A stretch of DNA of 64,000 nucleotides from a virus (Duplodnaviria; Caudoviricetes), in IMG/VR virus record IMGVR_UViG_3300028048_000057, positions 1 to 64,000 of that record; one strand, given 5' to 3'. The notes beneath the pieces were generated by a model, which had not been told where the DNA came from, ran no database searches, and was given only the letters and a program-made list of their open reading frames with translations. The translations under genes and the position numbers were made by a program. Shown one piece after another: positions 34,321 to 57,107 of this stretch (position 1 is the stretch's first letter; every line of letters begins with the position of its first letter).

Positions 34321-37300
34321 ATGGAATTATATGATAAAGTAACTCAAGTATTAGATGATTATGGTATTCTTTATGGTGATATTGTAGAAAATGATGATGG
34401 TTCTATTAATATTGTTGGTGTTGAAGAAGATGAATGGGATGAAGTAGTTGATGCTATTAAAGAAGAATTAGGCCTTGATGTTTTAGTTCCAGATTCAGAC
34501 CATGATGAATTAGACAATGAATTAATTGTTAGAGAATCCTTAAAAGAATCTTGTGTAAAATATACAAAACCAACTAAAGAAGATATTGAAGAATGGGACC
34601 CTGATTTTGATATTTGTTGTAAAGATGTTGCTAATGGATTAGATAGTGGCTATTGGCATGGACAAACCTCAAGTGAAAGAAGTTGGGGATTAAGTGTTAA
34701 TGGTAAAGATGGAAATCAATTTAGTCCATTATTTGCAGATGTAGTTGCTTATGAAATTTCTTATCCAGTTAGAGATGGTTTATTTAGTTATAGTGGTTTA
34801 GATTGTGTTCCTAATAAATCTACATTCTCCTATATGAGTGAAGAAGATTGGAAAGATGAAGATAAATTAGAAACACTTAGAAATGATTTATTAAGTGTTG
34901 GTTGTGAAGAAGAAGAAATTAATAAATTCTTTAAAGATGAAATTAGTGAAATTGAATTCTATGTTGATTATGAAATTGATATTGATGATTTAGAAGAAGA
35001 TGAAGAAGAAACTGATGAATCTTTAAAAGAAGATAAAAGTTTTAAGGATTTAACAATTGAAGACATGTTCTTTGAAGTTTCTGGTAAGAAATTTAAAGTT
35101 TTTGATAAAAATGGTCACTTCACAAAAGAAGCATGGAAATTATATGATAAAGTAGCAAAGAAATTTGGAGATTATGATGAGTTTGATGCTCTTTGTGGTG
35201 AAGAAGGTTGTTTTGAAGATGATGAAGATATTCAATACCCTTCTAATGAATCTTTAAAAGAAGCAAAAGATGAAGATAAATTAGAAACCTTTGAAGATAA
35301 AATGGACTTCTTAGCAAAAGATGAACAAGAAGCAATTGATGGTTATGACAAAGTTATTGCTATGTTAAATCCAGATGAAGATGCTTTTGTTATTGAACAA
35401 TTAACTAAAATTAAAATTGAAGAAGAAGCACATAAAAAATATCTTGAAGATGTTAAAACTAATAAAGAGTTAGAATATACTGAACCTTTAGAACAAGATG
35501 AACTTGAAGAAGGTAAAACAAGTGCTCAAAAATATAATGATATGCTTCATAGAACTTTTGAGATGGCTAAAAAAGCCAATCTTGCTATGAAAGATTTCTT
35601 AATTAAAAATGGTGTTAGTGAAGAGGAAGCAGAAAAGTTATATCAAGATACAGGATTACATGGAAGTCCATTACAACAAAAATTAATTGACATGGGACTT
35701 AAAGATGAATTCTTTAGTAAATATGATTATAGTAAAGGTGTTATGAAAGAATCTAAACAAATTAAAGAAGCACAAGAAGGATTTACTACTTTCCTTAATT
35801 TAGAGTGTGGTGTATTATTAGAAGAAGACCACCCAGAATTTAAAGACTATTCAGTTGCTTATGACCATAAACATGGATATTATGATGAAACCTATCTCAA
35901 TTCTTTAGAAGGTGATTTAGAACTTCTTAAAGAGAGTGGATTAGATTATATCAAAAAAGGTGTTAATGGAACATATGCTATTTTAACTAAAGTAGATGTC
36001 CAAGGAAGCATGGAAGATGACTTTATTAAAGATGCTATCAAAGACATTGAAGATGGAATGTATATTGATAATAGTATTGAATTCTTAGATGGTGAACAAT
36101 TCAAAGCATCTAATGTCATTTGGAGTGCATACAAAGATGAGAATGGTGAAATCCATGAAAACTTTGTTGATACAAGTGTTACTGAAGAATGTAAAAAAGA
36201 ATTAAAAGAATACAATTTACCTAAAGATGCTAAACCATATAAAACATGTGGTGATAAAGAATATTATATTGCTACCTTTGATGATGTAGATAGAGCAATG
36301 ATGGGAAACAAAGCAACTCATACAATTGTCACTAAGAAAGTTGGTGGAGACTTTGATATGGGAAGTGCTAGTGGTTTAGACTTTAATAGTGAAGAAGAAG
36401 CCAAAAAGTGGATTGATGATGCATGCTCATTAAAAGAAGATGTTAGTGATGAAGTAGCAAGTAAATTACAAGCCTTATATGATGAAGGTAGAGTTTACTT
36501 TGACCTAGCCAAAGATAAAGATGGAGATGACTTCCTCATTGTTGATGGATGGGAAGATGTTAGAAAAATTCAAAAAGCATTAAAACCAGATTTTGAACCT
36601 AAAGATGAATATGACACAAGTGTCTTAGATGAATTATTTGACAATGGTTATCAATGGGGATTTAGAGATGAATACTCTAAATGTGATAGATGTGGAAAAG
36701 TAATTAGAACAGAAGCAGACTCTTATTCATGGGTTCCAGACTTCTTTGTAACAGAAGATGGAGAAATTATTTGTGGTGATTGTGTTAGAGAAAATCCTAA
36801 AGAATATTTAGAAACTTTATATAACAACCCAGAAAAGGCAAATACAATCTTAAGTGCTCAAGACTTAATTGATAATGGTTTTGAAAAGATTGATGGTGAC
36901 TATGAAGATGGTTGGTATGACAAACATGACTCACCAGAAGAAATCCTTAACAAGGCTTTAGAAGCACATCCTAATGGAGTATTTATTTTCCATATTAGTG
37001 GACAAGGACAATTTGCAACTCAATTTGAATTATGGGGTGCAGACCTTGACTTAGATGAATCTAAGAAAAAAGACATTAAAGAAGAAAATGAAGACCATTA
37101 TGTTGTTATCTATTATGAAGATGGTAGTCATGACATTTCTTATGGTGATTATGATAAATCTTGTAAATTTTATGATGAGTATGTAGAAAAATTAGGTTCT
37201 ACTATTGAATCAGGAAAGAAGATTGTTAAAGTTTTAAGATATAGTGAAAATGGTTGTGAAGAAAGTAAATCTTTAGAAGGATTTGAAAATATTGATGAAT

Positions 37301-37509
37301 CCTTAAAGGAATCCTACAAAGAAAATGACCTTATTGAATTTGAAGATGATGCACCTATGACTTTTGGTGATATTGTTGAAATGATGTACAATAGATTATC
37401 AAAGGAAGATAACTTAGTTGAGAACTTAGAAGAAGAAGCCCTCAAATGTGCTAAAAACTTCATTGAAGAAAAAGGTGGGCATAAAGCCACTAAAGATGCA
37501 GAAAAGTAA
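34321..37509 (+). CDS. Acidic multi-domain polyprotein (ferritin-like and Zn-ribbon domains, ESLKE linkers)
   Basis: ESLKE at 34534, 35017, 35248, 37297; DEQEAIDGY...EEEAH; CDRC...CGDC. Confidence 0.7.
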   Translation: MELYDKVTQVLDDYGILYGDIVENDDGSINIVGVEEDEWDEVVDAIKEELGLDVLVPDSDHDELDNELIVRESLKESCVKYTKPTKEDIEEWDPDFDICCKDVANGLDSGYWHGQTSSERSWGLSVNGKDGNQFSPLFADVVAYEISYPVRDGLFSYSGLDCVPNKSTFSYMSEEDWKDEDKLETLRNDLLSVGCEEEEINKFFKDEISEIEFYVDYEIDIDDLEEDEEETDESLKEDKSFKDLTIEDMFFEVSGKKFKVFDKNGHFTKEAWKLYDKVAKKFGDYDEFDALCGEEGCFEDDEDIQYPSNESLKEAKDEDKLETFEDKMDFLAKDEQEAIDGYDKVIAMLNPDEDAFVIEQLTKIKIEEEAHKKYLEDVKTNKELEYTEPLEQDELEEGKTSAQKYNDMLHRTFEMAKKANLAMKDFLIKNGVSEEEAEKLYQDTGLHGSPLQQKLIDMGLKDEFFSKYDYSKGVMKESKQIKEAQEGFTTFLNLECGVLLEEDHPEFKDYSVAYDHKHGYYDETYLNSLEGDLELLKESGLDYIKKGVNGTYAILTKVDVQGSMEDDFIKDAIKDIEDGMYIDNSIEFLDGEQFKASNVIWSAYKDENGEIHENFVDTSVTEECKKELKEYNLPKDAKPYKTCGDKEYYIATFDDVDRAMMGNKATHTIVTKKVGGDFDMGSASGLDFNSEEEAKKWIDDACSLKEDVSDEVASKLQALYDEGRVYFDLAKDKDGDDFLIVDGWEDVRKIQKALKPDFEPKDEYDTSVLDELFDNGYQWGFRDEYSKCDRCGKVIRTEADSYSWVPDFFVTEDGEIICGDCVRENPKEYLETLYNNPEKANTILSAQDLIDNGFEKIDGDYEDGWYDKHDSPEEILNKALEAHPNGVFIFHISGQGQFATQFELWGADLDLDESKKKDIKEENEDHYVVIYYEDGSHDISYGDYDKSCKFYDEYVEKLGSTIESGKKIVKVLRYSENGCEESKSLEGFENIDESLKESYKENDLIEFEDDAPMTFGDIVEMMYNRLSKEDNLVENLEEEALKCAKNFIEEKGGHKATKDAEK

Positions 37510-38273: not shown

Positions 38274-38275
38274 TG

Positions 38276-38304
38276 TTGACAAATAATATAGACCTATTTA
38301 TAAT
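38276..38304 (+). promoter_or_regulatory. Consensus sigma-A/70 early promoter
   Basis: TTGACA-17 bp-TATAAT. Confidence 0.9.
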
Positions 38305-38330
38305 TGTGATTGAAGTGAGGTACTAGGAAT

Positions 38331-39092: not shown

Positions 39093-39097
39093 ACAAT

Positions 39098-39845: not shown

Positions 39846-42800
39846 ATGGATATAGATTCAAAGAGTACAAATAAGAATATTTGTAAAGAAGACTTAACTA
39901 GTGATATTGAATTAGTATCTAAGTCTTTTGGAACCTCTACACAACCATTTATGGGCCCTTCTTATATTTTACCTAATGGTAAATTTTTAAAAATAAGAAA
40001 TGCCAATATCAATATTTCTAGTAATGGAAGTGGAGATAGAGGATTAATCATTCACTTAGATGTTCAAAAATGGTTAAACAAACAACACAATAAAGAAGTA
40101 AGTAATATTGATAGTATAGATTTAGAAGAAGTTTGTATTAGAGTTAATACAGATATGGTAGAACATTATATTGTATTGCCTAAACAAAGACCTAATGATA
40201 ATCAGTTTGAAGCATTAAAGGATTGGATAGACTTCTACTTTGAAAAAAGAAATACTAATTTAACACTAGTTTCCTACTATGGTCCTACAGAGACTTATTT
40301 TGTAGGTACAGTTGCAGAAGATATTATTGATGATATTAAAGCATACTATACAAGAGGAATGTATTTTGAAAGTAAATCTTGTACAAAAGATAAACCTATA
40401 GTTATTAAAGAAGACTACACTCCTACAGAAGAAGATTTTCCATTTACTTTAGATGATATAGAAAATGAATTTCCTGATTTATTTAGTTCTAATTTTGAAT
40501 CTTGTGGAAATGCTTTTATTACTCCAGATGGAAGATTCATTCTTAGTGGAAAAAGATTTGATATGCATGCTGACTTTTCTTGGCAATGCTTAATGAACAT
40601 TGCTGGTAAGACAGAACAAGAAATTGAAACTGAGTGGGATACAAGTAAACTTTTAGATGCTTTTACTAAATATTTTGATTTAGTTAGAGTTAATGATGGT
40701 TCTAATAAAGGTTCAGAGGAAAGAGTTTATTTTGTAATTCCAAAAAATAGATTATCTAGAGGCCAATATGATGCTTTATTATCTTGGTTAGATTATATAC
40801 TAGAAAATAAGTTTTCTAAAAAGATTTATGATATTCAAGCATTTGTAGGAAATAATTATGCACATAAAAGATGGGATATATCTAATGATATTACAAGTGA
40901 TGAAATCATGGAGGATGTTGAGGGTGCTTTAATTAGAGGTTACTTTACTGAATCTCTTAAAGAAGAAGTTAGCGAAAGTGACCAAGAAATATTAAACATT
41001 TTAGATGAAACATTTGGTCAAGGTGATAGAATTGTAGATTGGTCAACTTATATTTTACCTAATGGACATTGTTTAGACTTTTGGAGTGATTGTATAAATG
41101 ATAAATATTTAAGTGATTCTCCAGAAGAATGGTTCACAGAAGATGAAGGTGAACACGCTAGATGTTGGGAATTCATGAATGCTATGTGGCCAGATAAATT
41201 TGAATCTTCTATTGAGTGTGAAGAATTTATGGATAAATATTGTATTAAAGTTAATATTAATTATCCATATGCTTCCCTTGCTACAAATAATGTTACATCT
41301 CAACAATGGAATTCATTAGAAAAAATTATGAATTGTCTTTTAGAACACCCAATAGATTATTATTGGATGGAATGCCCTAATGATGAAAAAGGAATGGTTA
41401 GTATCTTAACTAAAAAGGGAGATACTTGGTTAAACTTATTTGAACTAGGCCTTGAAGAATTCATGAAAGAAGTTAAAGAAGGATATACAAGAGGATTCTT
41501 TGAAAATTTAGATGAATATTTTGATGAAGTAGGATTTGAAGAAACTAATGAAGAATTTCCAGTATTTGCTAGTGATGAACCATATAGAATTAAAACTTTA
41601 ATCACAAAAGGTGATAAGGCTTATAGAATTTATTATGATAAGAGTACAGGAACTTTCTATCTCCAAGATGCTTTTGGTAATAGAACACATGGAGATATGC
41701 TAGACCTAGCCAAAGAAAATGGATGGATTACAGACCAAAGTTCTTTAGGTAAATACTTAGATACTGATTGGGATGGGTACATGGTTTTCATTCCATTCAA
41801 TTATGATAAAGAATTAAGATGGCACACAAGAATAGGTGAGGATGATTATTATGATTGTAGAGTTTATCCTTATGGTGTCATGTTTGTTAGAGATGATAAA
41901 GCATATGAAAACCCTCTTTTTAGTGCATTAGGAGAACCAGAAAGAGAAATTCATTATAAAGAGTCTAATGAAACTATAACTATTAGTGTAGGAGATAAAT
42001 CCTATGACTTAGATGTATGGGATGATTTAGGTGCTGAACCTAATGATGCAATCTCTTTGGATTTAGATAGTTTAGGTAAAAAGAAAAAAGACCATAATAA
42101 ATTTGAATATGTTTTAGATATGGTTAAGTCTTTAGGATTTAAAGTTGCTAATTCTGAAAGAAGATATGAACAAAAAGAATACATTAATTTTGCAAATAGA
42201 TTTTATGATGAATATCAATTAGTAAGAGATATAGATAAAGATGAACCTTGGACCTTAAAAGATGAGGAAGGAAATGTTTTAAATGATTCTTTAGATTTTA
42301 ATGATAGTGATAATTGGAATGTTATTTCTTCTTTACAAGATGCTAAAGATGATGGCATAGATGATATAGATGATGATTTACTTGATTTAGATGATTTAGA
42401 CTATGATGACATTGAAAGAGAATCTTTAGATGAAGGAGTTGATAAATACTATAGATTAGAACTTGAAGACCCTTGGGGAGGAAGGTCTGGCCTTATACTA
42501 GGTGCTTTTGAAATGATTCCAACAAAAGAGACTATTGAGGAATTTCCTGAAGATTTTGAAGAATTGACAGATGATGAGAGAAGAACATATTATGAAATTG
42601 ATAGAATAATTTCTAAGTTATCTGAAATTAAATGTCCTGCAGTAAATTCTAAAAACATTTTTGCTTTTACAAAAGAGGCTTACAATAAATATAAGGAAGA
42701 TATAAAATATCTACAAGAATTAGTATCTAAAATAGGTATGAAAGTTATTATTAATGAAGTAGATGTAGATGATTTAGATATAGAGTATAAGGATGATGAC

Positions 42801-45800
42801 CAAATTGCTTTTGATGTAAGAAAGTATAATCCAAGAGAAATAACTGAATCAAAACAAGATATTGAAAAGTTCAAACAATGGGCGGGAGAGAAACTTGCTA
42901 ATAGATTTTTTGCTATTAAAGATAGAATTAAAGATAATGATAAAGATATGAGAGATATCTATTGGTGGATGACTCAAGCAAATAAATTTTTTGGTGATGA
43001 TGAGCAAGTCCTAAAACAATTAAAAGATTTTGTTAAAGAACTTGAATCAATTCCAACAAAAAAAGAGAGAAATAAAAATGCTAGAGAAGGTTCAGAAAAA
43101 GTCTATGATGATGGAAGATGGTTAGTTTTAAAAATTAATACATATGAAGCATCTGTTAAATATGGTAAAGGTACTGAATGGTGTATTACAGGAACTAACT
43201 CAAGTGATGATGAAGGAAACGGTGGAAGATATGATTTTGGAAAACACTCTAAAGGTGCTCAAATTTATTTCTATATTGATAGAAGTAAAAATAATAAATA
43301 TGCTTTAGAATTTAAAGATTTACATAATTGGTGTTTGTGGAATGAATCAGATTGGGTTGAGTGTGGTGAAGGTAAATTATTTAAACAAGGATTAGATGTT
43401 CAATCAGGAGAGACTTGGAATGCTTATGACTCAGGAGGAAAGCATCCTAATTTTCCAAACATTCAAGGATTACCAGACTTAAATAAAGCATATGAGGATT
43501 TAGCAAAAGAACAAGGTTGGGATAAACCTATTATTTTAGAGGAAATTGAAAAAACATTTAAGTTCCCTAATACTCCTACAATGCAAAGAGCATTACAATC
43601 TTTAGAAAAAGATGGATATAAATTAGAAACAATCAGAATAGAAGATTTAGTTAAAGATAATAATCTTTTAGATAACAAAGAATTAGATTATCATAAAGCA
43701 ATTTGGGGACCAAATCCAGATGATTATAGAATGGATGATATGGAAATTGATTCATGGAATTTTAATGATGCAATGTCTTGTGTTAGAAAAGATAATAAGT
43801 TATTATTAAATAATGGTAAACATAGAACAAGAGCCCTTTATAATAGTGGATATGAATTTATAGAAATTCCTGTTTTAAGTGAATCACTAAATGAATCAAA
43901 CAAGGAGTTAGATTATATTCATGAAATGGATGGAGATTATGTGGACATGAAAGAACTTGAAAATGTCACATACAAACAATTAGTAGATAATGATTTAGTA
44001 ATTAATCCAACTAATAAGTTATATCATAGCACTCCTGCAAGCAATTTAGAAAGTATTAAACAAAATGGATTGAGAATAGATAATAAGAATTTATGGTCTA
44101 TGTCTAAATCAGGAAGGATTTATTTTGCACTAGACCCAGATGAATCTATAGAATATACAGAGTATGCATATCAATGGGGAGCCTCTAATGTAGAAGATGT
44201 TATTTTATTGGAAGTTCCTATTGATGCTTTAGATTTAAATAAACTTTATGTTGATACTAATGAAGATGAAAATGGATATTGTATTGAAGGAAAATTGTGT
44301 TTGATGTCTCTTGAATATAGAGATAATGTTCCAGCATCTAGTATTAAAATTGTAAAAATTATAAAAGAAGATGAAATGGATGAATCTCTCAAAGAAAAAA
44401 TAGTTAAGAAAGGAAATAAGTGGCAAGTTCAATCAGAAAAAGGAAAGAACTTAGGTACTTATGATACTAAGAAAGAAGCAGAAGATAGACTTAAACAAGT
44501 TCATTATTTTAAACATATGAATGAATTTATAGATGAAGTTCCAACAAAATATTCAGAAGAAACAATAACCGATGAATTAAGTGAAGTTAAAAGATTATTA
44601 AATAAAGGAAATGTTAGTTATAGAGGATGCTATGACACCAAGGATAATGTAGTTGGTTTAAGTGAATTAGAATTAGAGATTCATGATAATGTTGAAAGAG
44701 CAATGGTAAAGAATGGATACTCTTCTAATTTCTTACATAGATTTTTAGTTTTTGATAAAAAATATTATGATGAAAATAGTATTGATGATGAAGTAGATTA
44801 TTATGATATACCTCTAGAACAATATGAATATGATAATTTTTATTTAGTGTGGGTGGTTGAAAAAGGTAAATCATTTACTAAAACAGAATTGTATAATGTA
44901 TTAGGAAAACCTATTAAGAAATTGAGATACATAAAAGAATCATTTAAAGAAGATTTAAAAGACAATCAAGTTGTATATAACTTTGATAGAGAATTAAACT
45001 CTAATGAAGTACTTTTATATCATCAAACAAGTGAAGATAAATTAAAGAAAATTCTTAAAGATGGTTTTATAAAACATGATGTTTGGGCACAAGAGAATAT
45101 AGACACATGGAATTATGGAGGATATGCTATTGGATTTGCAATAGATAAAGATAGAGTGCATAAACCAAATGATATAGATAGAATAGTTTATGTAGATATC
45201 CCTAAAGAAGATTTTGTATGCATTCTTGATTCTAGAGGTAGAACTTCAATAGGTAAAGAGAAATTTAAAAGTGAATTTGAATTAGTAGAATCAAAGGAAG
45301 ATTTTGAAAAATTTAAAGTATGGTGTAATGATGATAACTTATATAATAGATTTATGAAGTTAAGAAACAGATTAAATGGACAAGAAAAAGATATCTATTA
45401 TTGGATGGGCCTTGAAAAGAAATATGGAAAACATGGGGCTATTCAAGAATTACTCATCACCCTTAGAGATTTAGAAAGAACACCTACTAGAAAAGAAAAA
45501 GATGAACTAGCCAAAGAAGGGTCTATACTTTTATATAATCAAAATGGTTGGAAAGTATATAAAATAGAAACTCAAGAAGCATCACAAAAATATGGTAAGA
45601 ATACCATGTGGTGCATTAGTGGTGAAGGTGGATATGATATAGGGGATGGTTTTTGGGAAGGACATGAAGACAATACTTACTTCTATATCCATGGAAATGA
45701 AAAGTATGCTTTGATTTGGCCTAAAGGAGCCAAAGTTTGGGATATTTGGAATGATGAGGATGAAATAATTCCTTATATACCTAATGCTCCTAAAGTAGAA

Positions 45801-46150: not shown

Positions 46151-48085
46151 ATGAGTGTTAGAAAATTATTAGAAGATTTAGACATTGAAAATATAGATGA
46201 TGAAATAATTGTAGATGACAATATGGATGTTGTTGATGACATCAAAGATAGATTAATTGTTACAGATGAAGAAGGTAATCTAGTTTCAGCACATGTATAT
46301 GCTAATACAATTTTGATTACTTATGAATTAACAGAAGAAGAATTAATTAAATTACTTAAAGAGAGTGGAGAATACTTTAAATTCTTTACTTTTACTTTAG
46401 AAGGTGTAGATGAATTAGTTATAGGTAATGAACTTTGTACTATTGAAGATATTAAAGAAGAATTTTTATCCTCTTTAGAAGATGGAGAAGAATTAGAATT
46501 TGATGTTGTTGAAATCAAAGATGAGGGTGAAGATGAACAACCAAAAGCAGAGGAACAAGAACTTACAGAATCCATGAAGAGTGAAGTTACTAAATGGTGG
46601 AAAGATGTAGAAGATGCTAACATTGCCATGAAGTGGGGATTTAGAATTGACAATGAAGGTTGTGATGAAGAAGAGATGCATGCAGCAATGTTTGATATGT
46701 TAGATGAACTTAAAGAAGTTGGTGCTTTTGAATTGTTTAATAGTGGTAAAAAGATTTACAATAAATATGCTAAATACTCCAAATATAATGAATCCATTAT
46801 TGAAGGTTGGGGTGAAGATGGAAAAGACTACATTTACTATTGTGTAAGTGATGGTATGAACCCAAGAAATTCTATTATTTTACCTAATAGTGAAGATGCT
46901 AGAGAAAGAGCAATTCAAATTGCAAAAGATAATCAACCAAAATATAAATATGTTTCTATGTTTAAAAATGGGGAAGAAATTGTTATTTGGAATGCGGAAG
47001 ACTTTGACCCAAGCATTAATAATATGCATGTTGAAAACTTAAAAGAATGTAAAGTTAAAGTTAGTGCATTGCATGATGATGGTTCTTTAGCACATGAAGA
47101 AGTGGTTGAAATTGAAGGCCCTTATGATAGTGGTAAAATTCTTACAAAGTTTTTTGAAAAGAATCCAGAGTATAAACAATCAATGTTATCATTAGACTTT
47201 ATTGAAGAATCTATTAAAGAAGAAGTTAAAGAAGGACCAAGTGATATTTTTGGTTATATTAATGGTGATTTAGAATCATTTGACCCAAAAGCATTTATAG
47301 ATAAAGTTAAAGCAAGAAAAACTTCTTTACATACAAATAGAATAATTAAAGATACAGACAATTTAAAGATTTGTCATCATATTGTTTGTGAAACTTTAGG
47401 TTGGGGTGATGAACCAAGGGTTTATATTGATGTAGTTGAAGAAACTTGGACAAGAAACCCAGGTGATGCAGATGACATCAATTCTTATTCAGGAGAAGAA
47501 ACCCAAGATAGAATTTTAATGAAGAATTGTGGTAAAGGTGAAGAGGGATTTGCTAAGGCCATTGAAGTATTAGAACAATATAAAAAAGATACTTTAGGTA
47601 AGAATGAATCTTTACAAGAAGATAGAAAAAATCCTACTCCAGTTGAATTTAGAGAAAGAATTTCAAAAATCAAAACCTATCAAGAACTCAAAGATTATTT
47701 AAATGAATATCCAGAACTTTATTTAGATAGCAATGGTGTTGATGAATTATCAGTTTGGACTACTCTTGATGATGGAGAAATGGCTGGTGATATTATTGCT
47801 AATGTTGACCAATTCTTTGATGATTGGTATAAAGAACATCATTGTGATGAATCTTTAAATGAAAGTGGCTCTCATGAAGAAAATATTTCTAAAATTAGAA
47901 CTTATGGTGAATTAAATAGATACTTAGAAAAACATCCAGAATTAATACTAAAAAGTCCAGGAAAAGGTGTTTTAAATGTATTTAAGAAAGATGAAGATGG
48001 AGTTGAAGAATTTGTTTGTGATGTTAGCAAATTCTATAGAGCCTTTAGAAAAGAAGCAGATAAAGCAGATATAAGAATTAAATAA
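46151..48085 (+). CDS. Acidic multi-domain polyprotein
   Basis: ESIIE, ENLKE, ESIKE, ESLQE (47606), ESLNE (47849) linkers; duplicated ISKIxTYxEL..YL...PEL domain. Confidence 0.7.
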   Translation: MSVRKLLEDLDIENIDDEIIVDDNMDVVDDIKDRLIVTDEEGNLVSAHVYANTILITYELTEEELIKLLKESGEYFKFFTFTLEGVDELVIGNELCTIEDIKEEFLSSLEDGEELEFDVVEIKDEGEDEQPKAEEQELTESMKSEVTKWWKDVEDANIAMKWGFRIDNEGCDEEEMHAAMFDMLDELKEVGAFELFNSGKKIYNKYAKYSKYNESIIEGWGEDGKDYIYYCVSDGMNPRNSIILPNSEDARERAIQIAKDNQPKYKYVSMFKNGEEIVIWNAEDFDPSINNMHVENLKECKVKVSALHDDGSLAHEEVVEIEGPYDSGKILTKFFEKNPEYKQSMLSLDFIEESIKEEVKEGPSDIFGYINGDLESFDPKAFIDKVKARKTSLHTNRIIKDTDNLKICHHIVCETLGWGDEPRVYIDVVEETWTRNPGDADDINSYSGEETQDRILMKNCGKGEEGFAKAIEVLEQYKKDTLGKNESLQEDRKNPTPVEFRERISKIKTYQELKDYLNEYPELYLDSNGVDELSVWTTLDDGEMAGDIIANVDQFFDDWYKEHHCDESLNESGSHEENISKIRTYGELNRYLEKHPELILKSPGKGVLNVFKKDEDGVEEFVCDVSKFYRAFRKEADKADIRIK

Positions 48086-48092
48086 TTAATTT

Positions 48093-50708
48093 ATGAATTG
48101 GAATGATTTTTTAGTAAAAGGATATAAAGAATTAGATAATGCCCACTTACATTTTAATGTTGAAGGTGGGACTTTTGAATTTGATAATGATAGAGATGCT
48201 AGACAAGGTGCAACAATCTTAGGAAGACTCTATGGTTTTGATAATGTCATTCAAAGTGGATGGAATGTTATAGTTTCTTTTCCTGATGATGTTGATGAAA
48301 ATTTAATTAAAAAGTTAACTGAAGATTTAATTGTAATTGAACCTTATGAGGCTAAGGAAAAGTTAGCAAATCTAAAGCATCAAATTGAAAATGAAGATAC
48401 ACCAGAGAACAAAGAATCTTTAATGACATTAATGGATATTTATTTATTTCAAACATATAAACCTTCAGATAAGGAAGAGTCCAATATTACAGATGCAGAA
48501 TGGGAAGAATATTCTAAATTTTTAAATAGTGAGAAAGAAAAATATCAAAAGCATCTTAAGGAATCTAATTCAGAAACAATAGAATTATACTATGATAAAC
48601 TACCTATCAAAACTAGGTATAAGGTATTTAATGCTACTGAAATATCTCCAGAAGAGTGGGACTATAAAGAAGGATATGATTCTTGGACTTATGAAGTAGA
48701 TAAAGATTATGTTATAGATGTCTTATATGATACTATATTAGATGAAAAAGAATTTGAAAATTATTCAGAAGAAGAATTAGTAAAATACATTAATGATAAT
48801 TTTGATGACTTATTGGATAAATATTACAAAGAGGTTTTAAAATATTTTGAAGATAGTGCCATTGAAGATTATGAAGAACATAAGCGTGATGAAGATGATT
48901 GGGATGATTATAGAGAATCTTTAAATGAAGATTTAAAATCTAAGTTAGAGAAAAAGTTATCTGAAGACATGGATAATTTACCAGGAGTCTATTATGTAGT
49001 TAAATCAGATATGACTAAAAAAGGATATGGTGCACTAAGAAATATTCTGTATAGAGATGTAAATAAAGAAAAGGCATTAAAGAATTTAAAATTACATAGA
49101 CAACTTAATAAGGATAACCAAAATGTAAAGGTGTTTTTAGTATATAATAATAAAATACTAGATGAAGATATTGAAGATAGAGAAAATACTATTTTACAAG
49201 TTGTTAAAGAACATGTTGATGAATTATTGTCTTCAATGAAAGATTCACCAGTAGTAAGAAAAAGAAAAGGATGGGAAGAATGTTCTTTTGGTTATAAATT
49301 ACCAAATAGAAATATTAATATTACATATGGTTATAAGAAAGATAATAAGGTATTATTTAAAGTTGAATTCTATTCATCAAAACCTAAATATCTTGTTGCA
49401 AGTCCACAATACTATTGGTTAGTTTATAATAAAGACACAAAAGATTTACATTTTATTGATGGCCTTCAAAATTTAGAATATGAAGGATTAGAAGAAGATA
49501 TTGAAAAACACGATACTTTAAATCCTAAATTATTTGATAATAATGAATTAAAACCAGAAGTAAAAGAAGCACTTTTAAAAGTAGTAGATGCTTTTGTAGA
49601 AGATTTAAAAGATAGTGAAATAGATATTAAAGTTAAAGATGTTGTTGTAATAGGAAGCAATGTAAATTATAATTATAATAAAGATAGTGATATTGATTTA
49701 CACATTATTGCAGATTCAGACATTTCTCAATATCCAGGTGAATTATTAACTTTATTGTACAGTGCATATAGAAGTATATTCAATAAAAATTATGATATTA
49801 CAATTAAAGGAATTCCATGTGAAGTATATGTTGAATTAGATGAATTACATGGAACTAGTAATGGTGTTTATTCACTATATAATGGTTGGTTAAAAGAACC
49901 AGAGCAAAAGAATATTCCAGATATTGATATGGATACTTTTAATAAATTATTTGATGAGTGGGAAGATAAGTATTTTGCATTGTTAGATGAGATAGGAATT
50001 ACTCCAGAAGAAATGCTTGCTCTAAACGAGAGAGAAGAAGATAAAGAAGCAAGTGAAAAGGTATATAATTTTATTGAAGATATTTATGACCTTAGAAAAG
50101 AATCAATTGCTCAAGAAGGTGAATTTGGTTTAGGTAATCTTGTATTTAAAGAATTTAGAAACCTTGGATACTTAGATGCTTTAAAACAATTAACTAAAAT
50201 TCTAAAGGGAAAAGAATTATCTTTAGAAAATATAAATGAAGATTTCTCACAAGATACTTTAGAATCTATATACAAATATACACTAGATAATGATGGTGGG
50301 ACTTTTGATTTAAGAAGTGGTAAAAGCCTTTCAGGAAATGATAGCATGAAAAATGTCTATAGTGTTGAATTCAAAAGTCATGATTGGAGAAAAAGAATAG
50401 GCCAAGTAGATAAACAAGAAGTATTAAATGCTATTGAATCATTATTAAGAAGTGATAGTGTTAAAGATGCAGATGCTATCGGTACTTGGAGTAGTGGAGA
50501 AAATGAAAGACCACAATCAAGTATAGGATTAAATAAAATCTTTAAAGATAGAGAAGAAGCAGAAAAATTTGCTTTAGACCATAATCAAAAGGCTATAGGT
50601 GAATTCAATAGTAATGGAGAATATGAAGAAACTATCTATAGAAAAGACTTTAAATATAAACCTCATAAAGAAGATGAGCCAAAAGAGCAAGACAAAGAAG
50701 AGAAATAA
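48093..50708 (+). CDS. Polyprotein with Pol-beta-superfamily nucleotidyltransferase domain
   Basis: VVIGSNVNYNY..DSDIDLHII and EVYVE; ESLNE 48915, EGLEE, ENINE linkers. Confidence 0.75.
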   Translation: MNWNDFLVKGYKELDNAHLHFNVEGGTFEFDNDRDARQGATILGRLYGFDNVIQSGWNVIVSFPDDVDENLIKKLTEDLIVIEPYEAKEKLANLKHQIENEDTPENKESLMTLMDIYLFQTYKPSDKEESNITDAEWEEYSKFLNSEKEKYQKHLKESNSETIELYYDKLPIKTRYKVFNATEISPEEWDYKEGYDSWTYEVDKDYVIDVLYDTILDEKEFENYSEEELVKYINDNFDDLLDKYYKEVLKYFEDSAIEDYEEHKRDEDDWDDYRESLNEDLKSKLEKKLSEDMDNLPGVYYVVKSDMTKKGYGALRNILYRDVNKEKALKNLKLHRQLNKDNQNVKVFLVYNNKILDEDIEDRENTILQVVKEHVDELLSSMKDSPVVRKRKGWEECSFGYKLPNRNINITYGYKKDNKVLFKVEFYSSKPKYLVASPQYYWLVYNKDTKDLHFIDGLQNLEYEGLEEDIEKHDTLNPKLFDNNELKPEVKEALLKVVDAFVEDLKDSEIDIKVKDVVVIGSNVNYNYNKDSDIDLHIIADSDISQYPGELLTLLYSAYRSIFNKNYDITIKGIPCEVYVELDELHGTSNGVYSLYNGWLKEPEQKNIPDIDMDTFNKLFDEWEDKYFALLDEIGITPEEMLALNEREEDKEASEKVYNFIEDIYDLRKESIAQEGEFGLGNLVFKEFRNLGYLDALKQLTKILKGKELSLENINEDFSQDTLESIYKYTLDNDGGTFDLRSGKSLSGNDSMKNVYSVEFKSHDWRKRIGQVDKQEVLNAIESLLRSDSVKDADAIGTWSSGENERPQSSIGLNKIFKDREEAEKFALDHNQKAIGEFNSNGEYEETIYRKDFKYKPHKEDEPKEQDKEEK

Positions 50709-50760: not shown

Positions 50761-51501
50761 ATGGCAATGAGTGTTAAAGACTTAGCCAAGTGGCTTAAAC
50801 AAGAAGTAGAATTCTTAAAAGAAAACCAAGATTATGTTGGTGGTTGGATTCAATTAGGTAATGGTCTTGCTGCAGTTGTTTTATGGACTCCAGGTTGGGG
50901 TGATGAAAAAAGAGATGATTGCATTCAAGCAGAAGATAACCCAGATTATGCATTGTGTGCAGGAATTAAAATCTACAATCCACATGATACACCAGATGGT
51001 TGGTTAATGCTTAGTGATAAAGAAGGAAATATTGTTACAGAAGAAAGTGGTATTTCACCAAAAGAAGATTATGAAGCAGAAGCAAAATGGTTATTAGATG
51101 ATTTTGCTAAAGTTGAAACTGTTGATTATGATGAAGATGGTGTTATTACAAGTGAAATTGAAGAACCTAAGAAAGAAGAAGAATCTTTAAAAGAATCAAA
51201 AGGTGATTATTTAGATTCTAAATATAAAAAGATTATTGGTGAATATTTTGATTACACAGGTGACTTTGAATTCTTAGATATTGTTGCTGATGTTATTTCA
51301 AGAATTGATGATTTTGGGGATGAAGAAGATATTTGGAGAGCCATTGATGATGCATTAATTTATAATGATGACCAATGGACCATTGCTCAATTCTATGCTT
51401 CAAGTCCTAGTGAATGTGATTGGGATTCCATTATTTCAGATTTTGATGGTGATATCCACTCAATTTGTGATTTAATTATTAGTTCAGGAGATGAAGAATA
51501 A
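50761..51501 (+). CDS. Two-domain acidic protein; C-domain Ocr-like
   Basis: ESLKE at 51181 separates domains; IWRAIDDALIYNDDQW. Confidence 0.6.
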   Translation: MAMSVKDLAKWLKQEVEFLKENQDYVGGWIQLGNGLAAVVLWTPGWGDEKRDDCIQAEDNPDYALCAGIKIYNPHDTPDGWLMLSDKEGNIVTEESGISPKEDYEAEAKWLLDDFAKVETVDYDEDGVITSEIEEPKKEEESLKESKGDYLDSKYKKIIGEYFDYTGDFEFLDIVADVISRIDDFGDEEDIWRAIDDALIYNDDQWTIAQFYASSPSECDWDSIISDFDGDIHSICDLIISSGDEE

Positions 51502-51941: not shown

Positions 51942-51958
51942 TGCTAAATTTAATGATA
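51942..51958 (+). promoter_or_regulatory. Putative late promoter TGCTAAATTTAATGATA
   Basis: Extended motif upstream of the neck gene. Confidence 0.75.
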
Positions 51959-51990: not shown

Positions 51991-52701
51991 ATGAAATTAA
52001 GTGAATATATTGAGGATATCAAACTTGTACTCACAGGTGGAGTTTTAAGGTTAGAAATAAGTGATGACACTATTGGAAAGTTAATCTTAAAGGCCTTTTC
52101 TGAAGTTCAAAGATATATTGATGAAACAAGATTTATTCAAGTTCCTTATGCTTCTTGTATTGATTTAAAAGATTTTAAACATAGTTCTATCACAAATGTA
52201 TATAGAACTAAGGGAACAGGAATTGACACTTCTTCAGATATGAATGCTTTGAATGACCCTATGTATTTTCAAATGTGGGCTTCATATGGTTTTGGAGGAA
52301 TGTATAATTTAAATGAGTTCATATTGAATTATGGTGCTTTCAATACAATAGAACAAATTAGAAATACTCAAACAACAGACCTTAAATTTATTGAAGATAA
52401 ACAAGGTGATAAATTATATATCAACTCTTCAATAGATACACCAATAGAAATTGTAATAGAGTATGTTCCAAAATTTGATGATGTGGATGAAGTTAAGAGT
52501 GATTATTGGATTGATATTTTAAAAAGATTATCCTTAGCACATGTTAAAGCAACTTTAGGATATATAAGAACTAGAATGAAAGTTAATAATCAACCTTATA
52601 CTGATGATGGTGAAGAGATGAGAAGAGAAGGTTTAGAAGAAATTGCACAACTAGAAGAAACCTTAAGAGTGAATTCTCAACTCATATATCCAGTAGATTA
52701 G
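51991..52701 (+). CDS. Neck/head-completion protein (T4 gp13-like)
   Basis: YI...L.G....EI start and WI.....A..K..LG..R...DG....EG..E...LEE.L ending. Confidence 0.65.
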   Translation: MKLSEYIEDIKLVLTGGVLRLEISDDTIGKLILKAFSEVQRYIDETRFIQVPYASCIDLKDFKHSSITNVYRTKGTGIDTSSDMNALNDPMYFQMWASYGFGGMYNLNEFILNYGAFNTIEQIRNTQTTDLKFIEDKQGDKLYINSSIDTPIEIVIEYVPKFDDVDEVKSDYWIDILKRLSLAHVKATLGYIRTRMKVNNQPYTDDGEEMRREGLEEIAQLEETLRVNSQLIYPVD

Positions 52702-52748: not shown

Positions 52749-55535
52749 ATGAGTAAGATTGAAGAATTAAGAAAAGAACTTAACAATGCAAGGGATAGAC
52801 TTATTGCCAAAGGATGGAAATGGGATGGAGAAAGTGGAAATCTTATGGACATTAAGCCATTTGAAATTGCTTATCAAGAGGCTATTGAAAAAGTATTTCC
52901 AGATTATATTTGGTGGGAACTAACCAATTATTGGGATATCTTTGATGCTATGATGAGTGGAATTAATGATAAAGATATTATTGAGGAAATCATTAATCAC
53001 ATTGACCCAAGTGCTTTTGAGGAAGAGTTTGGTGAAATCAAAGAAGATGAAGATGGAGACCCTATTTTAGGAGAACCTCAAGAACATGAAATTGATGAAT
53101 TAGAAAAAGAAGATACCAAAGTAATTGCAAAATTAACAGAAGGTACAAGTAACTTCCCAGTAAGAAGTGATTTTGATTTACTTGTTTTCTATACTTTTGA
53201 TGAATTTTCAGACATGATTAGGTATAGTAGTGATTATCCTAATGAAGCATCTTTTGAAGATGATAATGGTAATGTTAATTATGAAGCATTTGAAAATGCA
53301 TGCCAAGAATTTGAAGACAAGATGTGGGAAGAAAATGAAGTTTGTGTTTTAGATGATGATGATATTGAAAGACTTAAAGATAAATTAGATGACTTTAATT
53401 TAGAAACCAAATCTATTTCAGATAGAAGATGGAATGATGAAGTTGGTGATGAAACATATGATGACCTATCTAATCTTGAAGATATTGAATTAAAGATTGA
53501 ACCAGGTTATTATGAAGCAGCATATATTGATGTTGATAATGAAAATTCAATTAAATATATGAGTAAAGAATTTGGTGAAGAACAAAGTGAAAGAATTGCT
53601 AAGTTCTTAGAAGAATTAAGAAAAGAATTTGGCTTAACAAAGTTAGGTCTTGCTTATGGTCCAGCAAGCAATGGTGAAACAGGATTTAAAATTATTAAAG
53701 AAGCAAAACCTGCAAATAAAGGTAAAAAGAAAGCAAGAATTATAGGAAATCCAGAAGCAGAAAAAACATTTTTTAATGTTGCTAATGGTACTTGTGAATC
53801 TTGCAAATTAAGTGAAGCAAAAGAAAAATCCTATGAAGAAATGTTTGATGAACTCATTGATGGAGTTGAATTTGAACTTGTAAAATATAGTGGTGAAGAT
53901 AGAAAATCCAAATCTACTTGGGATGATAAAGAATATGAAGGAGATTGGGGTTTAATTGATACCCAAGGTGCTAATTTAGGTGGCATTGAAGAAGAAAGAT
54001 TCAACAATGCTAAAGAAATCATTGATAGATTAAATGTTTATATTAGTGATTACTTCTTAGGTGGACAAGATGGTCTAGAAGTTAGTGAAGAACATCAAGA
54101 TGAATTAGATGATTGTTATACATATGAAGAAATGTTAGAATTCTTTAAGAAATATCCAGAAGAAGATGAAAATGGTTATCTTGTTGAATTATTAGACTTC
54201 ATTGTAAATCATGCTAAAGATGTTGATTTAGAAAAATGTACTTTTGAAGAATTCGGTGAAGATTCCAAAGGAAGTGAAGTTTGGGTTTTAAAATTCATTG
54301 ATAAAGATGGCAATCAAGTTAAAGAAATGGGAAAACCTATGGCTTTAGATTGCACAAAAGCATTAGCCCAAAAATTAGTTGATGCAATGAATAAGTATCC
54401 AGGAAGAGTGGGAATGACTCATGAGATTGAAAAGGCTCCTTATGCAGATTCAATGTCTTATGAAATCATTGATAGTGATGATGTAGAAGAATGGATTAGT
54501 AAGATTGAAGCAGAAGGAGAAGCCTCTAATGAATCTTTAAAAGAGGAAAAAGAACCAGAACTTCCAAAAGAAGTTACAATGGACATGGCTACTATGAATG
54601 ATTTAGATATTAACCCTTCTGAAACTGGTGGAGATGAATTAGATGAAATCATTGGTGATTGGTTAAGTGATGAATATGGATATTGTCATTTTGGTTTTGA
54701 ATATGATGTAGAAAATGACCACATCAATATTTATAACATTGAATGGGATACAAGTGAATCATTAAAAGAAAGTAGTGAAGAAGAAGTCAAAGCCCCTAAG
54801 TATGCTGATGACCTTGAAATTGAAATTGCAAATAAATTAGAAAAAGCATTTCCTCAATCTAAAGGTGTGCACGATAATGCTACAGATATAGTTATGGATA
54901 TTGTAGATTTTTATCAAACTTACTATGATGAAGGTAAAACTCAAGATGAGATTAGAGCAAAATTAATTGCTAAACTTCCTGACTATGGTGTTACACACAT
55001 GGGTATGGCTGGAAGAATTATTGATTTAGTCATAAAAGAATTTGGTATTGATAAATGGGATTGGTCAGAAGGACATCCTACAGAATCTCTTAAAGAAGAA
55101 GAAAAACCATTTGTTTGTCCAAGACCAGCAATGAAACACAAAAAGATTAAAGAAGCAAGAGAAGATAGTGTTGGTTGGTTTGAAAGTGTTAAATGTTATG
55201 GTGCTCCAGGTGATGAACCAAGTGAAGTTTATGAACCAGGACAAGGTGCTTATTGTTTAGTAGATGAAGATTGTTTCTTAGTGGATAGATTAGAAAAATA
55301 TGAAAGAGAAGCAATTTTAGACCAATTAATTAAAGGTGGTTCTCAATTTGCAATTGGTGATAATGAATATGAAATTGAATTTGCAGGTGATTGTGATTGG
55401 GATGAAGCATGGCCTCATATCTTAAGAATGTTTAAACAAGGCAAACTTAATGGAGTATTTAAATTAGATAAAAAACAAGAATGTAAAGAAGAAAAAACAA
55501 TTTCTTCTAAAATTATTAAAGCACATAGAAAATAA
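52749..55535 (+). CDS. Acidic multi-domain polyprotein
   Basis: ESLKE at 54531, 54756, 55083; discrete domains e.g. LIDTQGANLGGIE and IGDWLSDEYGYC. Confidence 0.7.
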   Translation: MSKIEELRKELNNARDRLIAKGWKWDGESGNLMDIKPFEIAYQEAIEKVFPDYIWWELTNYWDIFDAMMSGINDKDIIEEIINHIDPSAFEEEFGEIKEDEDGDPILGEPQEHEIDELEKEDTKVIAKLTEGTSNFPVRSDFDLLVFYTFDEFSDMIRYSSDYPNEASFEDDNGNVNYEAFENACQEFEDKMWEENEVCVLDDDDIERLKDKLDDFNLETKSISDRRWNDEVGDETYDDLSNLEDIELKIEPGYYEAAYIDVDNENSIKYMSKEFGEEQSERIAKFLEELRKEFGLTKLGLAYGPASNGETGFKIIKEAKPANKGKKKARIIGNPEAEKTFFNVANGTCESCKLSEAKEKSYEEMFDELIDGVEFELVKYSGEDRKSKSTWDDKEYEGDWGLIDTQGANLGGIEEERFNNAKEIIDRLNVYISDYFLGGQDGLEVSEEHQDELDDCYTYEEMLEFFKKYPEEDENGYLVELLDFIVNHAKDVDLEKCTFEEFGEDSKGSEVWVLKFIDKDGNQVKEMGKPMALDCTKALAQKLVDAMNKYPGRVGMTHEIEKAPYADSMSYEIIDSDDVEEWISKIEAEGEASNESLKEEKEPELPKEVTMDMATMNDLDINPSETGGDELDEIIGDWLSDEYGYCHFGFEYDVENDHINIYNIEWDTSESLKESSEEEVKAPKYADDLEIEIANKLEKAFPQSKGVHDNATDIVMDIVDFYQTYYDEGKTQDEIRAKLIAKLPDYGVTHMGMAGRIIDLVIKEFGIDKWDWSEGHPTESLKEEEKPFVCPRPAMKHKKIKEAREDSVGWFESVKCYGAPGDEPSEVYEPGQGAYCLVDEDCFLVDRLEKYEREAILDQLIKGGSQFAIGDNEYEIEFAGDCDWDEAWPHILRMFKQGKLNGVFKLDKKQECKEEKTISSKIIKAHRK

Positions 55536-55547
55536 GGAGATACTAAA

Positions 55548-57107
55548 ATGAATAAAATTATGATGGATGCTTTTAAAGCACTAGAAAATATTGATGATGA
55601 ATTAGTAGCCCCTAAGAGAATAGTTATTAACAAAGATAAGAAAGTTGTTAATGAATCTAAAAGTGGTAATGCCAAAAAAGTTATCAAAGAAGAAAAAATT
55701 GAGACTATAGATATCAGTGGTAAAGATATGTATGAGAGAGGTAAGGCATATTACTATGCTCATACAGGTGATGTTGTTGATATTGATGGTAAAAAATTTA
55801 GAATTGACCATAGAGAACATAAAATTGGTTATGGTGACACAATTGATTTAATTGATTTAGAAACTAAAGAATTAACTACAATTTCTAAGAAAGATTTCAT
55901 TGAGAAGGCAAAACTTTTAGATGAAAGTTGTAAAGTAGATGAAGCCCCTAAATATGACTTAGATACACAACATGATTCTAGAAAATCTTTCTATGGTAAA
56001 GCAAAAGTTGATGTTAAAGATAATGGTACCCAAGTTCTTTATTCTTATGGTACTCCAGTTTGTAGAATTGAAAATGGTAAAGTTACTCTTTTAAATAAAG
56101 GGTATTTAGGTTGGGCAAGTTCTCAAACAACTTTAAGACATGTTAAAGAATTCTTAAAACAAAATGGTTTTGAAGTTGCAAGTTTAAGAGAATTGGCAAA
56201 GATGTACCCTATTGAACAAGCAAGAGAAGATGAATCTTTAAAAGAAGCAGTAATCAATCTTAGCAAAGAAGAAGAAGTTGAAGCAGCAAAGAAAGTTTTA
56301 AATGATGAAAGTGCAGAAAAAGAATTAACAGTTGTTGATGTTGATGCAGATTCTATTGATAAACTTAAAACAGATTATATAGGTAATGCTATTTTAATTT
56401 GTCCTGTATGTAAAACTCCTATTTTCTTAAAACCTTCAGCATTAAAAAAGGAAGAAAATAGTGACAAATATAATAAAGAAATAGAATGCCCTCATTGTCA
56501 TGCTCAAGATGGATTTGATTTAGTTGCCCAAGCAGCAGAACTTACTCCAGAACAAGCAGAAAAAGAAGCAGAAAAAACAGAGTTAACAGGAAGAGAGTCT
56601 ACCTCAGAAGAAGAAACTAAAGAAGTTAAAGATGTTGATGTAAAAGTTGATATTGATTCTAATGAAGATGAAGAAAAGAAAGAAGAATCTTTAACTAGAA
56701 AATTTATGATTGAAGATATTGATGAAAATAGATTTGATAAACTTATTAATCAATATTTAATTTCAACTTACAATAATGTTGAAAGTTACTCTACTACTAG
56801 TGGTAAAGTAGATAATGATAATAATATTGTTGTTTTAGAAGGTGTCATTAAATATAAGAGTGGTAAAGAAAAACCAACTTCATTTAAATTTGAAGCAAAA
56901 TCATCTACAAGAAGTGGTAGGCTTAGATTTGTAGGTATTAATGAAACTTTAACAAAGTCAAGAAATGCTTTCTCCTTATTTGGAAGAGTTTCTAAGAGTG
57001 GTTGTTTAAGATGTGAATCTATGAATTACTCTTATGGGGTTAAAGTATTAAATGAAAGTAAACTAATTAAGGGAAGAGTTGAAATTAAAGAAAAGAAAAT
57101 GAAGTAA
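55548..57107 (+). CDS. Multi-domain virion-associated protein with Zn ribbon
   Basis: SFYGKA...LYSY...SQTTLRH domain; ESLKE 56232; CPVC...CPHC. Confidence 0.65.
   Translation: MNKIMMDAFKALENIDDELVAPKRIVINKDKKVVNESKSGNAKKVIKEEKIETIDISGKDMYERGKAYYYAHTGDVVDIDGKKFRIDHREHKIGYGDTIDLIDLETKELTTISKKDFIEKAKLLDESCKVDEAPKYDLDTQHDSRKSFYGKAKVDVKDNGTQVLYSYGTPVCRIENGKVTLLNKGYLGWASSQTTLRHVKEFLKQNGFEVASLRELAKMYPIEQAREDESLKEAVINLSKEEEVEAAKKVLNDESAEKELTVVDVDADSIDKLKTDYIGNAILICPVCKTPIFLKPSALKKEENSDKYNKEIECPHCHAQDGFDLVAQAAELTPEQAEKEAEKTELTGRESTSEEETKEVKDVDVKVDIDSNEDEEKKEESLTRKFMIEDIDENRFDKLINQYLISTYNNVESYSTTSGKVDNDNNIVVLEGVIKYKSGKEKPTSFKFEAKSSTRSGRLRFVGINETLTKSRNAFSLFGRVSKSGCLRCESMNYSYGVKVLNESKLIKGRVEIKEKKMK

Follow-up and report, generated by a model that had tools for sequence, protein, structure and literature searches.

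Recurrent E-S-L-K-E joints in acidic polyproteins encoded among the virion genes of a T4-like phage: candidate head cargo for a gp21-type prohead protease

What might a phage gain from a series of long, acidic proteins, encoded between its capsid gene and its neck and sheath genes, in which small unrelated modules follow one another around the same five residues? This question is raised by the first 64 kb (hereafter 'the window', meaning the whole stretch of DNA that was analysed) of the 161-kb IMG/VR record IMGVR_UViG_3300028048_000057 (CheckV completeness estimate 91%), where a cluster of open reading frames (ORFs) at positions 34321–57107 encodes chains punctuated by the peptide E-S-L-K-E. 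A sequence-only reading of the window had proposed that these ORFs encode polyproteins of many anti-defence and takeover domains, which are made late, loaded into the prohead and released there, as injectable effectors, by the prohead protease encoded at 23223.

We consider it probable, though well short of certain, that the cluster encodes late-made head-cargo polyproteins that are cut at their joints by the prohead protease. The motif is real and conserved, lies at module borders and fits the rule of this protease family; the genes share a late motif; and one module has an ADP-ribosyltransferase (ART) fold. By analogy with phage T4, the chains would be loaded into the prohead and cut, and the pieces injected. 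The earlier interpretation is supported in part, by selection on the motif, module borders, stand-alone homologues, an S77 protease, the late motif and the ART fold; its 'many' effector domains come down to two modules.

A conserved joint and the codons that encode it

Each of the eleven ESLKE copies listed by the earlier reading is present (at 34534, 35017, 35248, 37297, 40950, 44382, 51181, 54531, 54756, 55083 and 56232), as are the variants ESLNE (43881, 47849 and 48915), ESLDE (42420), ESLQE (47606), ESIKE (47207) and ESFKE (44937). When each protein is shuffled separately, 0.04 copies of ESLKE are expected in the cluster (maximum 1 in 300 shuffles) and 11 are observed; for ES[LIF]xE the corresponding figures are 1.3 and 20, and ESLKE is the most frequent 5-mer of the cluster. 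The extended joint reads [D/E/N]-E-S-L-K-E-[D/E/S/A/G]-K-E, with an invariant Ser and with Leu at P3 (P1 being the last Glu of the five-residue motif). At the DNA level, the degenerate pattern GARTCNYTNAARGAR has 14 matches in the genome, all of them on the plus strand and in frame, with none on the reverse strand and none in the control.

The earlier reading had not seen the full motif in fibre, tail, glycosyltransferase or early proteins, and within the window it is indeed absent from the ORFs for fibre, tail and head-shell proteins and for glycosyltransferases. Across all 161 kb, just two ESLKE copies lie outside the cluster, one of them in a 907-amino-acid (aa) acidic ORF at 156065; with this ORF excluded, other acidic proteins outside the cluster hold one motif in 1756 aa. 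The ORF itself (genome positions 156065–158788, outside the window) carries ESLNE as well as ESLKE, has a late motif upstream at 156003, has a module in common with a polyprotein of the relative described below and yields a sub-threshold match to Pfam LPD26 (large polyvalent protein associated domain; 21 versus 27). If the genome is circularly permuted, it would immediately precede the fibre genes that stand at the window start.

That selection acts on the peptide, as had been suggested, is borne out by its conservation in a relative and in 75 homologues. The relative, G001, is a 115-kb IMG/VR record (the reverse strand of IMGVR_UViG_3300028048_000089) with core genes 45–65% identical to those of the window phage; in its syntenic cluster the top 5-mer is again ESLKE, and ES[LI]xE recurs in the corresponding proteins. 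The homologues are metagenomic proteins found with two polyproteins as queries, and their 69,064 aa contain 222 ES[LIFM]xE motifs (136 of them exact ESLKE), with at least one motif in 68 of the 75. Among the proteins recovered by an index-free search with aa 1340–1700 of the 39846 product are also long ones whose most frequent 5-mer, once the shared domain is set aside, is ESLNE.

The argument from codons, also advanced by the earlier reading, stands with one correction. Synonymous codons vary among the copies (TCT/TCC/TCA for Ser; TTA/CTT/CTC/CTA for Leu; AAA/AAG for Lys), but Ser is nearly always TCN: this holds for 44 of the 47 ES[LIF]xE copies of the window phage and G001, whereas AGY (AGT/AGC) makes up 41% of Ser codons genome-wide. 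The bias fits either joints that share an ancestor and are selected for Ser or a DNA-level constraint, and it would also accommodate a part played by the DNA itself when cassettes are exchanged.

Modules, their folds and their exchange

The claim that the motif marks module boundaries needs a similar qualification: alignment breakpoints, exact gain and loss of modules and dips in AlphaFold confidence all coincide with motifs, but not every border has one, and ORF 51501 has none. Among 1249 distinct breakpoints, 20.7% fall within 10 aa of a motif, versus 8.2% at random (maximum 10.2% in 200 trials). In polyprotein 1 (ORF 34321) they cluster at the motifs at aa 72, 233 and 310, and homology blocks of 53 relatives begin or end at aa 71–88, 231–248 and 299–323; near-motifs also occur (CSLKE at aa 702, QIKE at aa 480 and, at other borders, ELKE and DIKE), and modules that have no motif here are motif-flanked in relatives. 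Two homologues (P0006 and P0007) are missing exactly the two modules between two motif copies.

Segments are likewise shuffled between the window phage and G001, their ends often coinciding with motifs. Polyprotein 2 (ORF 39846), which contains internally repeated domain types, has its modules in a different order from a 2608-aa G001 protein, which aligns with aa 999–1221 from its residue 2370, directly after an ESLNE at 2368. The two modules of the 50761 product lie 270 aa further apart in G001, with ESLKE again directly before the second. The segment of the 52749 product between the motifs at aa 595 and 670 (module aa 599–672) recurs at various positions in 11 other proteins and, where it is N-terminal in relatives, has no motif upstream. 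Finally, a 326-aa stand-alone gene of the window phage (91956–92936), with no late motif upstream, matches residues 269–544 of a G001 polyprotein, in which ESLEE follows at 549 (24% identity, E-value 9e-17); a given module can therefore stand alone as a gene in one phage and be part of a chain in another. Taken together, the inter-motif segments behave as mobile modules. Elsewhere in the cluster, a single 306-aa G001 protein joins the N-terminal 55 aa of ORF 37557 to almost the whole of ORF 38331 (window 37557–39092), another case of module fusion or fission, here without the motif.

If the joints separate folded units, they should lie in inter-domain linkers, a check suggested by the earlier reading, and all five motifs covered by two AlphaFold models do lie in lower-confidence stretches between or beside confident domains. 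The model of aa 1340–1530 of the 39846 product (predicted local distance difference test [pLDDT] 80, predicted template modelling [TM] score 0.76) has a compact core (residues 25–167), with both motifs in its less confident flanks. In a Foldseek search of the PDB, this core matches KptA/Tpt1, pertussis toxin S1, DarT1 and PARPs, with E-values down to 6e-6 and probability 1.0, but with TM-scores of only ~0.4; it also resembles phage 2'-phosphotransferase-like and DarT-like proteins. Weak hidden Markov model (HMM) matches to PARP and KptA agree with this placement, although no family reaches its Pfam cut-off in the window polyproteins (PARP, 23.0 versus 26.7). The module at aa 1352–1512 is accordingly modelled as a member of the ART superfamily fold. 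The second model, of the 52749 product (23 sequences), has a mean pLDDT of only 58; its low-confidence stretches (594–602, 674–687 and 768–834) hold or adjoin all three motifs, and the ~70-aa module between the first two (603–673) has block-mean pLDDT values of 74–89. A Foldseek search with this 928-aa model gave no match below an E-value of 0.3.

Stand-alone homologues of inter-motif segments, for which the earlier reading had suggested a search, exist for the ART-fold, DUF2188-like and nucleotidyltransferase modules, besides the 91956 gene. The index-free search separated three modules, namely the ART-fold module (stand-alone homologues of 120–240 aa in a single-module alignment), the ~50-aa DUF2188-like module and a third module, which co-occurs with the DUF2188-like one in stand-alone proteins of 150–215 aa. 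The DUF2188-like domain (KIVKKGxKWQVQSEKG...) is covered by most of the 631 representative matches and is very widespread; it is also encoded on its own, by ORFs of 42–70 aa, on jumbo-phage contigs that reach 433 kb. In 104 internal copies from diverse long proteins, P3 is Leu or Ile in 80 and P1 is Glu in 83, whereas the E-S prefix is much rarer (Glu at P5 in 34, Ser at P4 in 24). Stand-alone copies have short leaders of 6–25 aa ending in L-x-E, leaders ending in I-[K/Q]-S, or no leader, and for this reason the L-x-E is not part of the domain. One stand-alone relative consists of a leader, a DUF2188-like domain and a Pfam ART-PolyVal domain (57.7 bits, above threshold). The module was also located at 21 viral loci, mostly as tiny stand-alone ORFs; weak matches in enterobacterial T4-like phages adjoin genes annotated as RNA ligase and anti-CBASS (cyclic-oligonucleotide-based anti-phage signalling system) and are uninformative on packaging.

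These patterns bear on the idea that the joint is a recombination or cassette junction that doubles as a flexible spacer, the repeated 15–30 nt giving microhomology and the chains working uncut as multi-domain (polyvalent) proteins. Module gain and loss exactly between motif copies would be expected of such a junction, as would a Ser codon that is almost always TCN despite 41% AGY, and there are precedents for transfer without cutting in the virion RNA polymerase of N4 and in several polyvalent proteins of plasmids (PMC5512222). Synonymous variation in the Leu, Lys and Glu codons speaks against it, however, and the fixed residues (Leu at P3, Glu at P1) are those that the protease family reads; moreover, an [L/I]-x-E precedes the DUF2188-like module even where other residues differ, which is hard to explain by DNA homology. 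We regard uncut chains as unlikely.

As to function, the 'many' anti-defence and takeover domains of the earlier reading come down to two modules with an assignment, the ART-fold module and a nucleotidyltransferase. The latter (aa 466–728 of the 48093 product) matches PHROG 36119 (E-value 1e-31) and, weakly, a Pol-beta nucleotidyltransferase HMM, and has ~230-aa stand-alone relatives in T4-like cyanophages and Lak phages. Scans of all polyproteins against Pfam, NCBIfam and PHROG gave only sub-threshold or function-unknown matches, with none for polyprotein 3 (ORF 46151), and PDB sequence searches with the 39846 and 48093 products and the 23223 protease returned nothing useful. Chains might therefore be imagined that are cut in the head yet serve as assembly-core or space-filling material, degraded and expelled like T4 gp22, gp67 and gp68, rather than as injected effectors: the proteins are very acidic (isoelectric point [pI] 4.1–4.6), most modules have no enzyme signature, and T4 core proteins are cut into many pieces that mostly leave the head (PMC9026906). 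Set against this are modules that are folded domains with stand-alone homologues, including the ART-fold and nucleotidyltransferase modules, and a fast module shuffling that is typical of conflict proteins and not of scaffolds; a pure core role strikes us as quite improbable.

The prohead protease and a possible route into the head

The 23223 gene had been named as the source of the cutting enzyme, and its product is a gp21-type protease by both Pfam Peptidase_S77 (PF03420; 29.3 bits, cut-off 27) and PHROG 207 (head maturation protease; E-value 1e-36). In its scaffold-like half, L-x-E is as dense as had been reported (13 observed versus 4.8 expected, a number reached in none of 1000 shuffles), and no other protein of 150 aa or more in the genome has an L-x-E density as high as that of the protein as a whole. 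In the capsid proteins of five related phages, S-x-F-L-N/T-E is conserved 20–30 aa before KKFxLD/PNLIA, where the gp23 maturation cut is expected. Proteases of the gp21 type cut after the Glu of L/I-x-E, core proteins being cut many times and T4 Alt at both ends (PMC9026906); the joint motif contains this rule. In T4, an Asp in place of this Glu prevents processing.

A host protease or another phage protease might instead cut the joints, either ahead of assembly or once injection has taken place. Because capsid and scaffold sites have no E-S prefix, one can conceive of a different specificity, and processing after injection has been proposed for polyvalent proteins (PMC5512222). HMM scans of the polyproteins, however, found no peptidase family match, and HExxH is absent from them, so that they have no built-in zincin peptidase; with no second protease found there, a motif that fits the S77 rule and genes that share their late motif with head genes, we think it very unlikely that the prohead protease is bypassed.

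The shared late signal, TGCTAAATT(T/A)(A/G), is promoter-like, is frequently lengthened to TGCTAAATTTAWTGATAAA and lies 30–60 nt upstream of virion genes. Its consensus is TGCTAAATTWR, and all 25 genome copies are on the gene strand: those of the window lie at 6857, 9665, 15715, 18136, 18430, 20484, 23165, 26300, 28718, 34278, 39807, 46108, 50711, 51942 and 58711, and 10 more lie elsewhere in the genome. Four polyprotein units had been placed behind it, correctly: 34321 (motif at 34278), 39846 (39807), 46151 (46108) and 50761 (50711). It also precedes 51991 (at 51942), the 156065 ORF and the genes for terminase, portal, protease, sheath and fibre. The T4 late promoter TATAAATA was considered as the late signal and discarded, being not enriched here (18 observed versus 19.7 expected).

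The route that we propose begins with chains that are strings of small, independently folding modules separated by the joint [D/E/N]-E-S-L-K-E-[D/E/S/A/G]. Such chains would be made late, alongside the head proteins with which they share the promoter-like motif, and would be built into the prohead core. There, the 23223 protease would cut after the last Glu of each joint, while also trimming the capsid protein at F-L-T-E and chopping its own L-x-E-rich scaffold half. The freed modules, which would include the ART-fold domain, the nucleotidyltransferase and the small basic DUF2188-like domain, might then remain inside the capsid and be delivered to the cell along with the DNA, as T4 Alt and the internal proteins of T4 are. 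Since the joint also marks the places at which phages swap, gain or lose modules, the cargo set would evolve by cassette shuffling.

Table 1. Positions of the polyprotein genes, of individual modules and of the virion genes named in the text
Feature	Window position	Strand	Remarks
Terminase	18490
Portal	20522
Prohead protease domain, gp21/S77 type	23223..23777	+	aa 1–185 of 519-aa protein; GHP and SSRG motifs
Scaffold-like coiled-coil half of 23223 protein	23778..24782	+	crowded with L-x-E
Major capsid protein, gp23-like	24830..26242	+	PHROG 138; predicted maturation site F-L-T-E, aa 50–53 (nt 24977–24988)
Polyprotein 1	34321..37509	+	1062 aa, pI 4.3; ESLKE at aa 72, 233, 310, 993
Polyprotein 2	39846..46064	+	2072 aa; motifs at aa 369, 859, 1346, 1513, 1698
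ART-fold module (predicted)	43899..44381	+	39846 aa 1352–1512; bounded by ESLNE 1346 and ESLKE 1513
Small basic DUF2188-like module	44397..44540	+	39846 aa 1518–1565; starts directly after ESLKE; DUF2188 HMM matches weak
Polyprotein 3	46151..48085	+	644 aa; ESIIE aa 214, ESIKE 353, ESLQE 486, ESLNE 567
Polyprotein 4	48093..50708	+	871 aa; ESLNE aa 275; nucleotidyltransferase module aa 466–728 (nt 49488–50276)
Two-module protein	50761..51501	+	246 aa; ESLKE aa 141 between modules
Head-tail adaptor-like gene within cluster	51991..52701	+	PHROG 211 head-tail adaptor Ad2, E-value 2.5e-9; no motif
Polyprotein 5	52749..55535	+	928 aa; N-terminal 594 aa conserved, followed by three modules delimited by ESLKE aa 595, 670, 779
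519-aa protein	55548..57107	+	one ESLKE, aa 229; PHROG 4264 matches aa 135–220

The window has a G+C content of 29%, and nearly all its genes lie on one strand (Table 1). The phage is a distant T4-like myovirus, because its capsid protein is ~30% identical to those of the closest cultured phages (Bacillus SP-15, Listeria LIS04 and Bacillus HSE3) and ~25% identical to those of T4-like phages (tblastn). The polyprotein genes sit between the capsid gene and the neck and sheath genes: the head-tail adaptor (51991; 56% identical in G001) is followed, by PHROG and Pfam annotation, by genes for sheath stabiliser, sheath, tube and hub. The G001 terminase large subunit, within the first 3.6 kb of the reoriented copy, is in two ORFs (562 and 434 aa), which match aa 5–210 and 232–639 of the single terminase of the window; the first has ~350 extra residues, which suggests an insertion such as an intein, an intron or a homing endonuclease. 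Immediately following the capsid gene and behind late motifs, at 26336–28723, stand a Stealth_CR2 hexose-1-phosphoryltransferase-like gene (101 bits) and a GT2 glycosyltransferase gene, the products of which may add sugar or sugar-phosphate to virion proteins.

These transferase genes, together with a Ser that is invariant though the known protease rule does not need it, could be taken to mean that ESLKE is a short linear motif for a reader other than a protease, such as a docking peptide for scaffold or portal or a site of Ser modification. Yet placement at module borders, Leu at P3 with Glu at P1 and many copies per chain suit cutting better than docking, and nothing links the Stealth and GT2 transferases to the polyproteins; we give this explanation very little credence.

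Several considerations nevertheless weigh against processed head cargo. Packaging, cleavage and injection are what we infer for an uncultured phage that is known from sequence alone. Capsid and scaffold sites show L-x-E without the prefix, so the known rule does not account for the strict E-S, which something else might read. Residues beside the motif are not depleted in hydrophobics, and the joints must therefore be very short. Several module borders in this phage carry just I-K-E or L-K-E in place of the full motif; that every border bears [LI]-K-E was entertained and dropped as a statistical claim, non-Ser [LI]KE being equally enriched outside the cluster. The homologues were gathered via shared 5-residue words, a retrieval that may favour ESLKE-bearing proteins. 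The cluster's weakest case is the 55548 product, whose ESLKE falls within a block that is conserved in G001, where the motif is missing. Lastly, the strong acidity of the polyproteins is unlike the basic T4 internal proteins, and comparison of their N-termini revealed no shared capsid-targeting peptide of the T4 style.

Should the joints be cut in the head, the motif would be a label, readable from sequence, for the proteins that this phage injects in the first minute of infection, which are rich in anti-defence and host-takeover functions and are otherwise hard to find in uncultured phages; the dozens of motif-bounded modules are a ready list of candidate effectors. Cutting would also account for the loading of dozens of distinct small proteins into one head on the strength of few targeting signals, would offer a simple rule by which to engineer T4-like heads for cargo delivery, and would link the gp21 processing of T4 internal proteins with the polyvalent proteins of Iyer et al., which the cited papers treat separately. 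A bolder extension, tentative and in our view doubtful, is that a clade of T4-like gut and rumen phages has a general cargo-cassette system, in which any small protein between E-S-L-x-E joints would be carried into the prohead, released by the head protease and injected, with the joint as the swap breakpoint among phages and between stand-alone genes and chains—an integron-like effector marketplace, from which injected effectors could be read directly.

Relation to known packaged and injected proteins

Head cargo cut at joints would recall the head-internal T4 proteins (IPI, IPII, IPIII) and T4 Alt, with which the window shares a gp21-type protease, the L/I-x-E rule, a site-rich scaffold and a variable repertoire of (here candidate) cargo (PMC9026906). 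As in Alt, a candidate ART-fold cargo is bounded by sites on both sides (PMC9026906), and the short N-terminal leaders ending in L-x-E of some stand-alone DUF2188-like relatives resemble the T4 capsid-targeting sequence. T4 cargo, in contrast, consists of single proteins, each with its own 7–10-aa N-terminal targeting peptide (PMC9026906), whereas modules here are chained in acidic proteins of 250–2072 aa by a stereotyped five-residue joint. No sequence homology of the polyproteins to T4 internal proteins or Alt was found.

The giant phages phiKZ, 201phi2-1 and SPN3US likewise have a gp21-related protease (gp175/gp245) and many head-internal proteins that are cut after the Glu of a three-residue motif (PMC10052503, PMC9026906). 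Their motif is S/A/G-x-E or A-x-E, with A-x-E in SPN3US (PMC10052503, PMC9026906), while P3 is Leu here, and 13 of the 14 mapped sites of SPN3US remove N-terminal propeptides and do not separate functional modules (PMC10052503). When the 22.8-kb cluster (as DNA, with megablast) and the 2072-aa protein (with tblastn) were searched against cultured phages (50,697 phage records), no match was found, and hence no homology to the inner-body and ejection proteins of phiKZ and SPN3US.

In their proposed role, the polyproteins are similar to the Dar proteins of phage P1 (DarA, DarB, DdrB, Ulx and Hdf), which are large, capsid-packaged and injected anti-defence proteins with loading tied to head morphogenesis. 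The head protease of phage P1 belongs to another lineage. The Dar proteins are separate genes without chained modules and a common joint, and no homology between them and the polyproteins was found. Processing of DdrB precedes its packaging, according to work cited in PMC5512222.

In architecture, a counterpart is found in the polyvalent proteins (Iyer, Burroughs, Anand, de Souza, and Aravind 2017), which are also long, contain unrelated small domains, are encoded among virion genes, shuffle fast and are predicted to be packaged and injected (PMC5512222). ART domains are typical of them (PMC5512222), and here chains encoded among virion genes contain ART-fold, DUF2188-like and other modules (39846) and a nucleotidyltransferase (48093). 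None of their signature domains (MPTase, LPD, ART-PolyVal and others) passes threshold in the window polyproteins, ART-PolyVal doing so only in the stand-alone relative. Processing of polyvalent proteins has been proposed to occur via built-in zincin-like (MPTase) or C-terminal assemblin-like peptidase domains (PMC5512222); the polyproteins here have no such domain and instead have a joint that matches a separate head protease. Term searches of PMC5512222 revealed no mention of a junction motif, and our literature search found no paper mentioning an ESLKE joint in phages. Injected multi-domain phage proteins are an idea already published, as polyvalent proteins (PMC5512222); the polyproteins of the window, as we interpret them, combine the processing of T4 internal proteins with a polyvalent architecture of the Aravind type, as a new variant.

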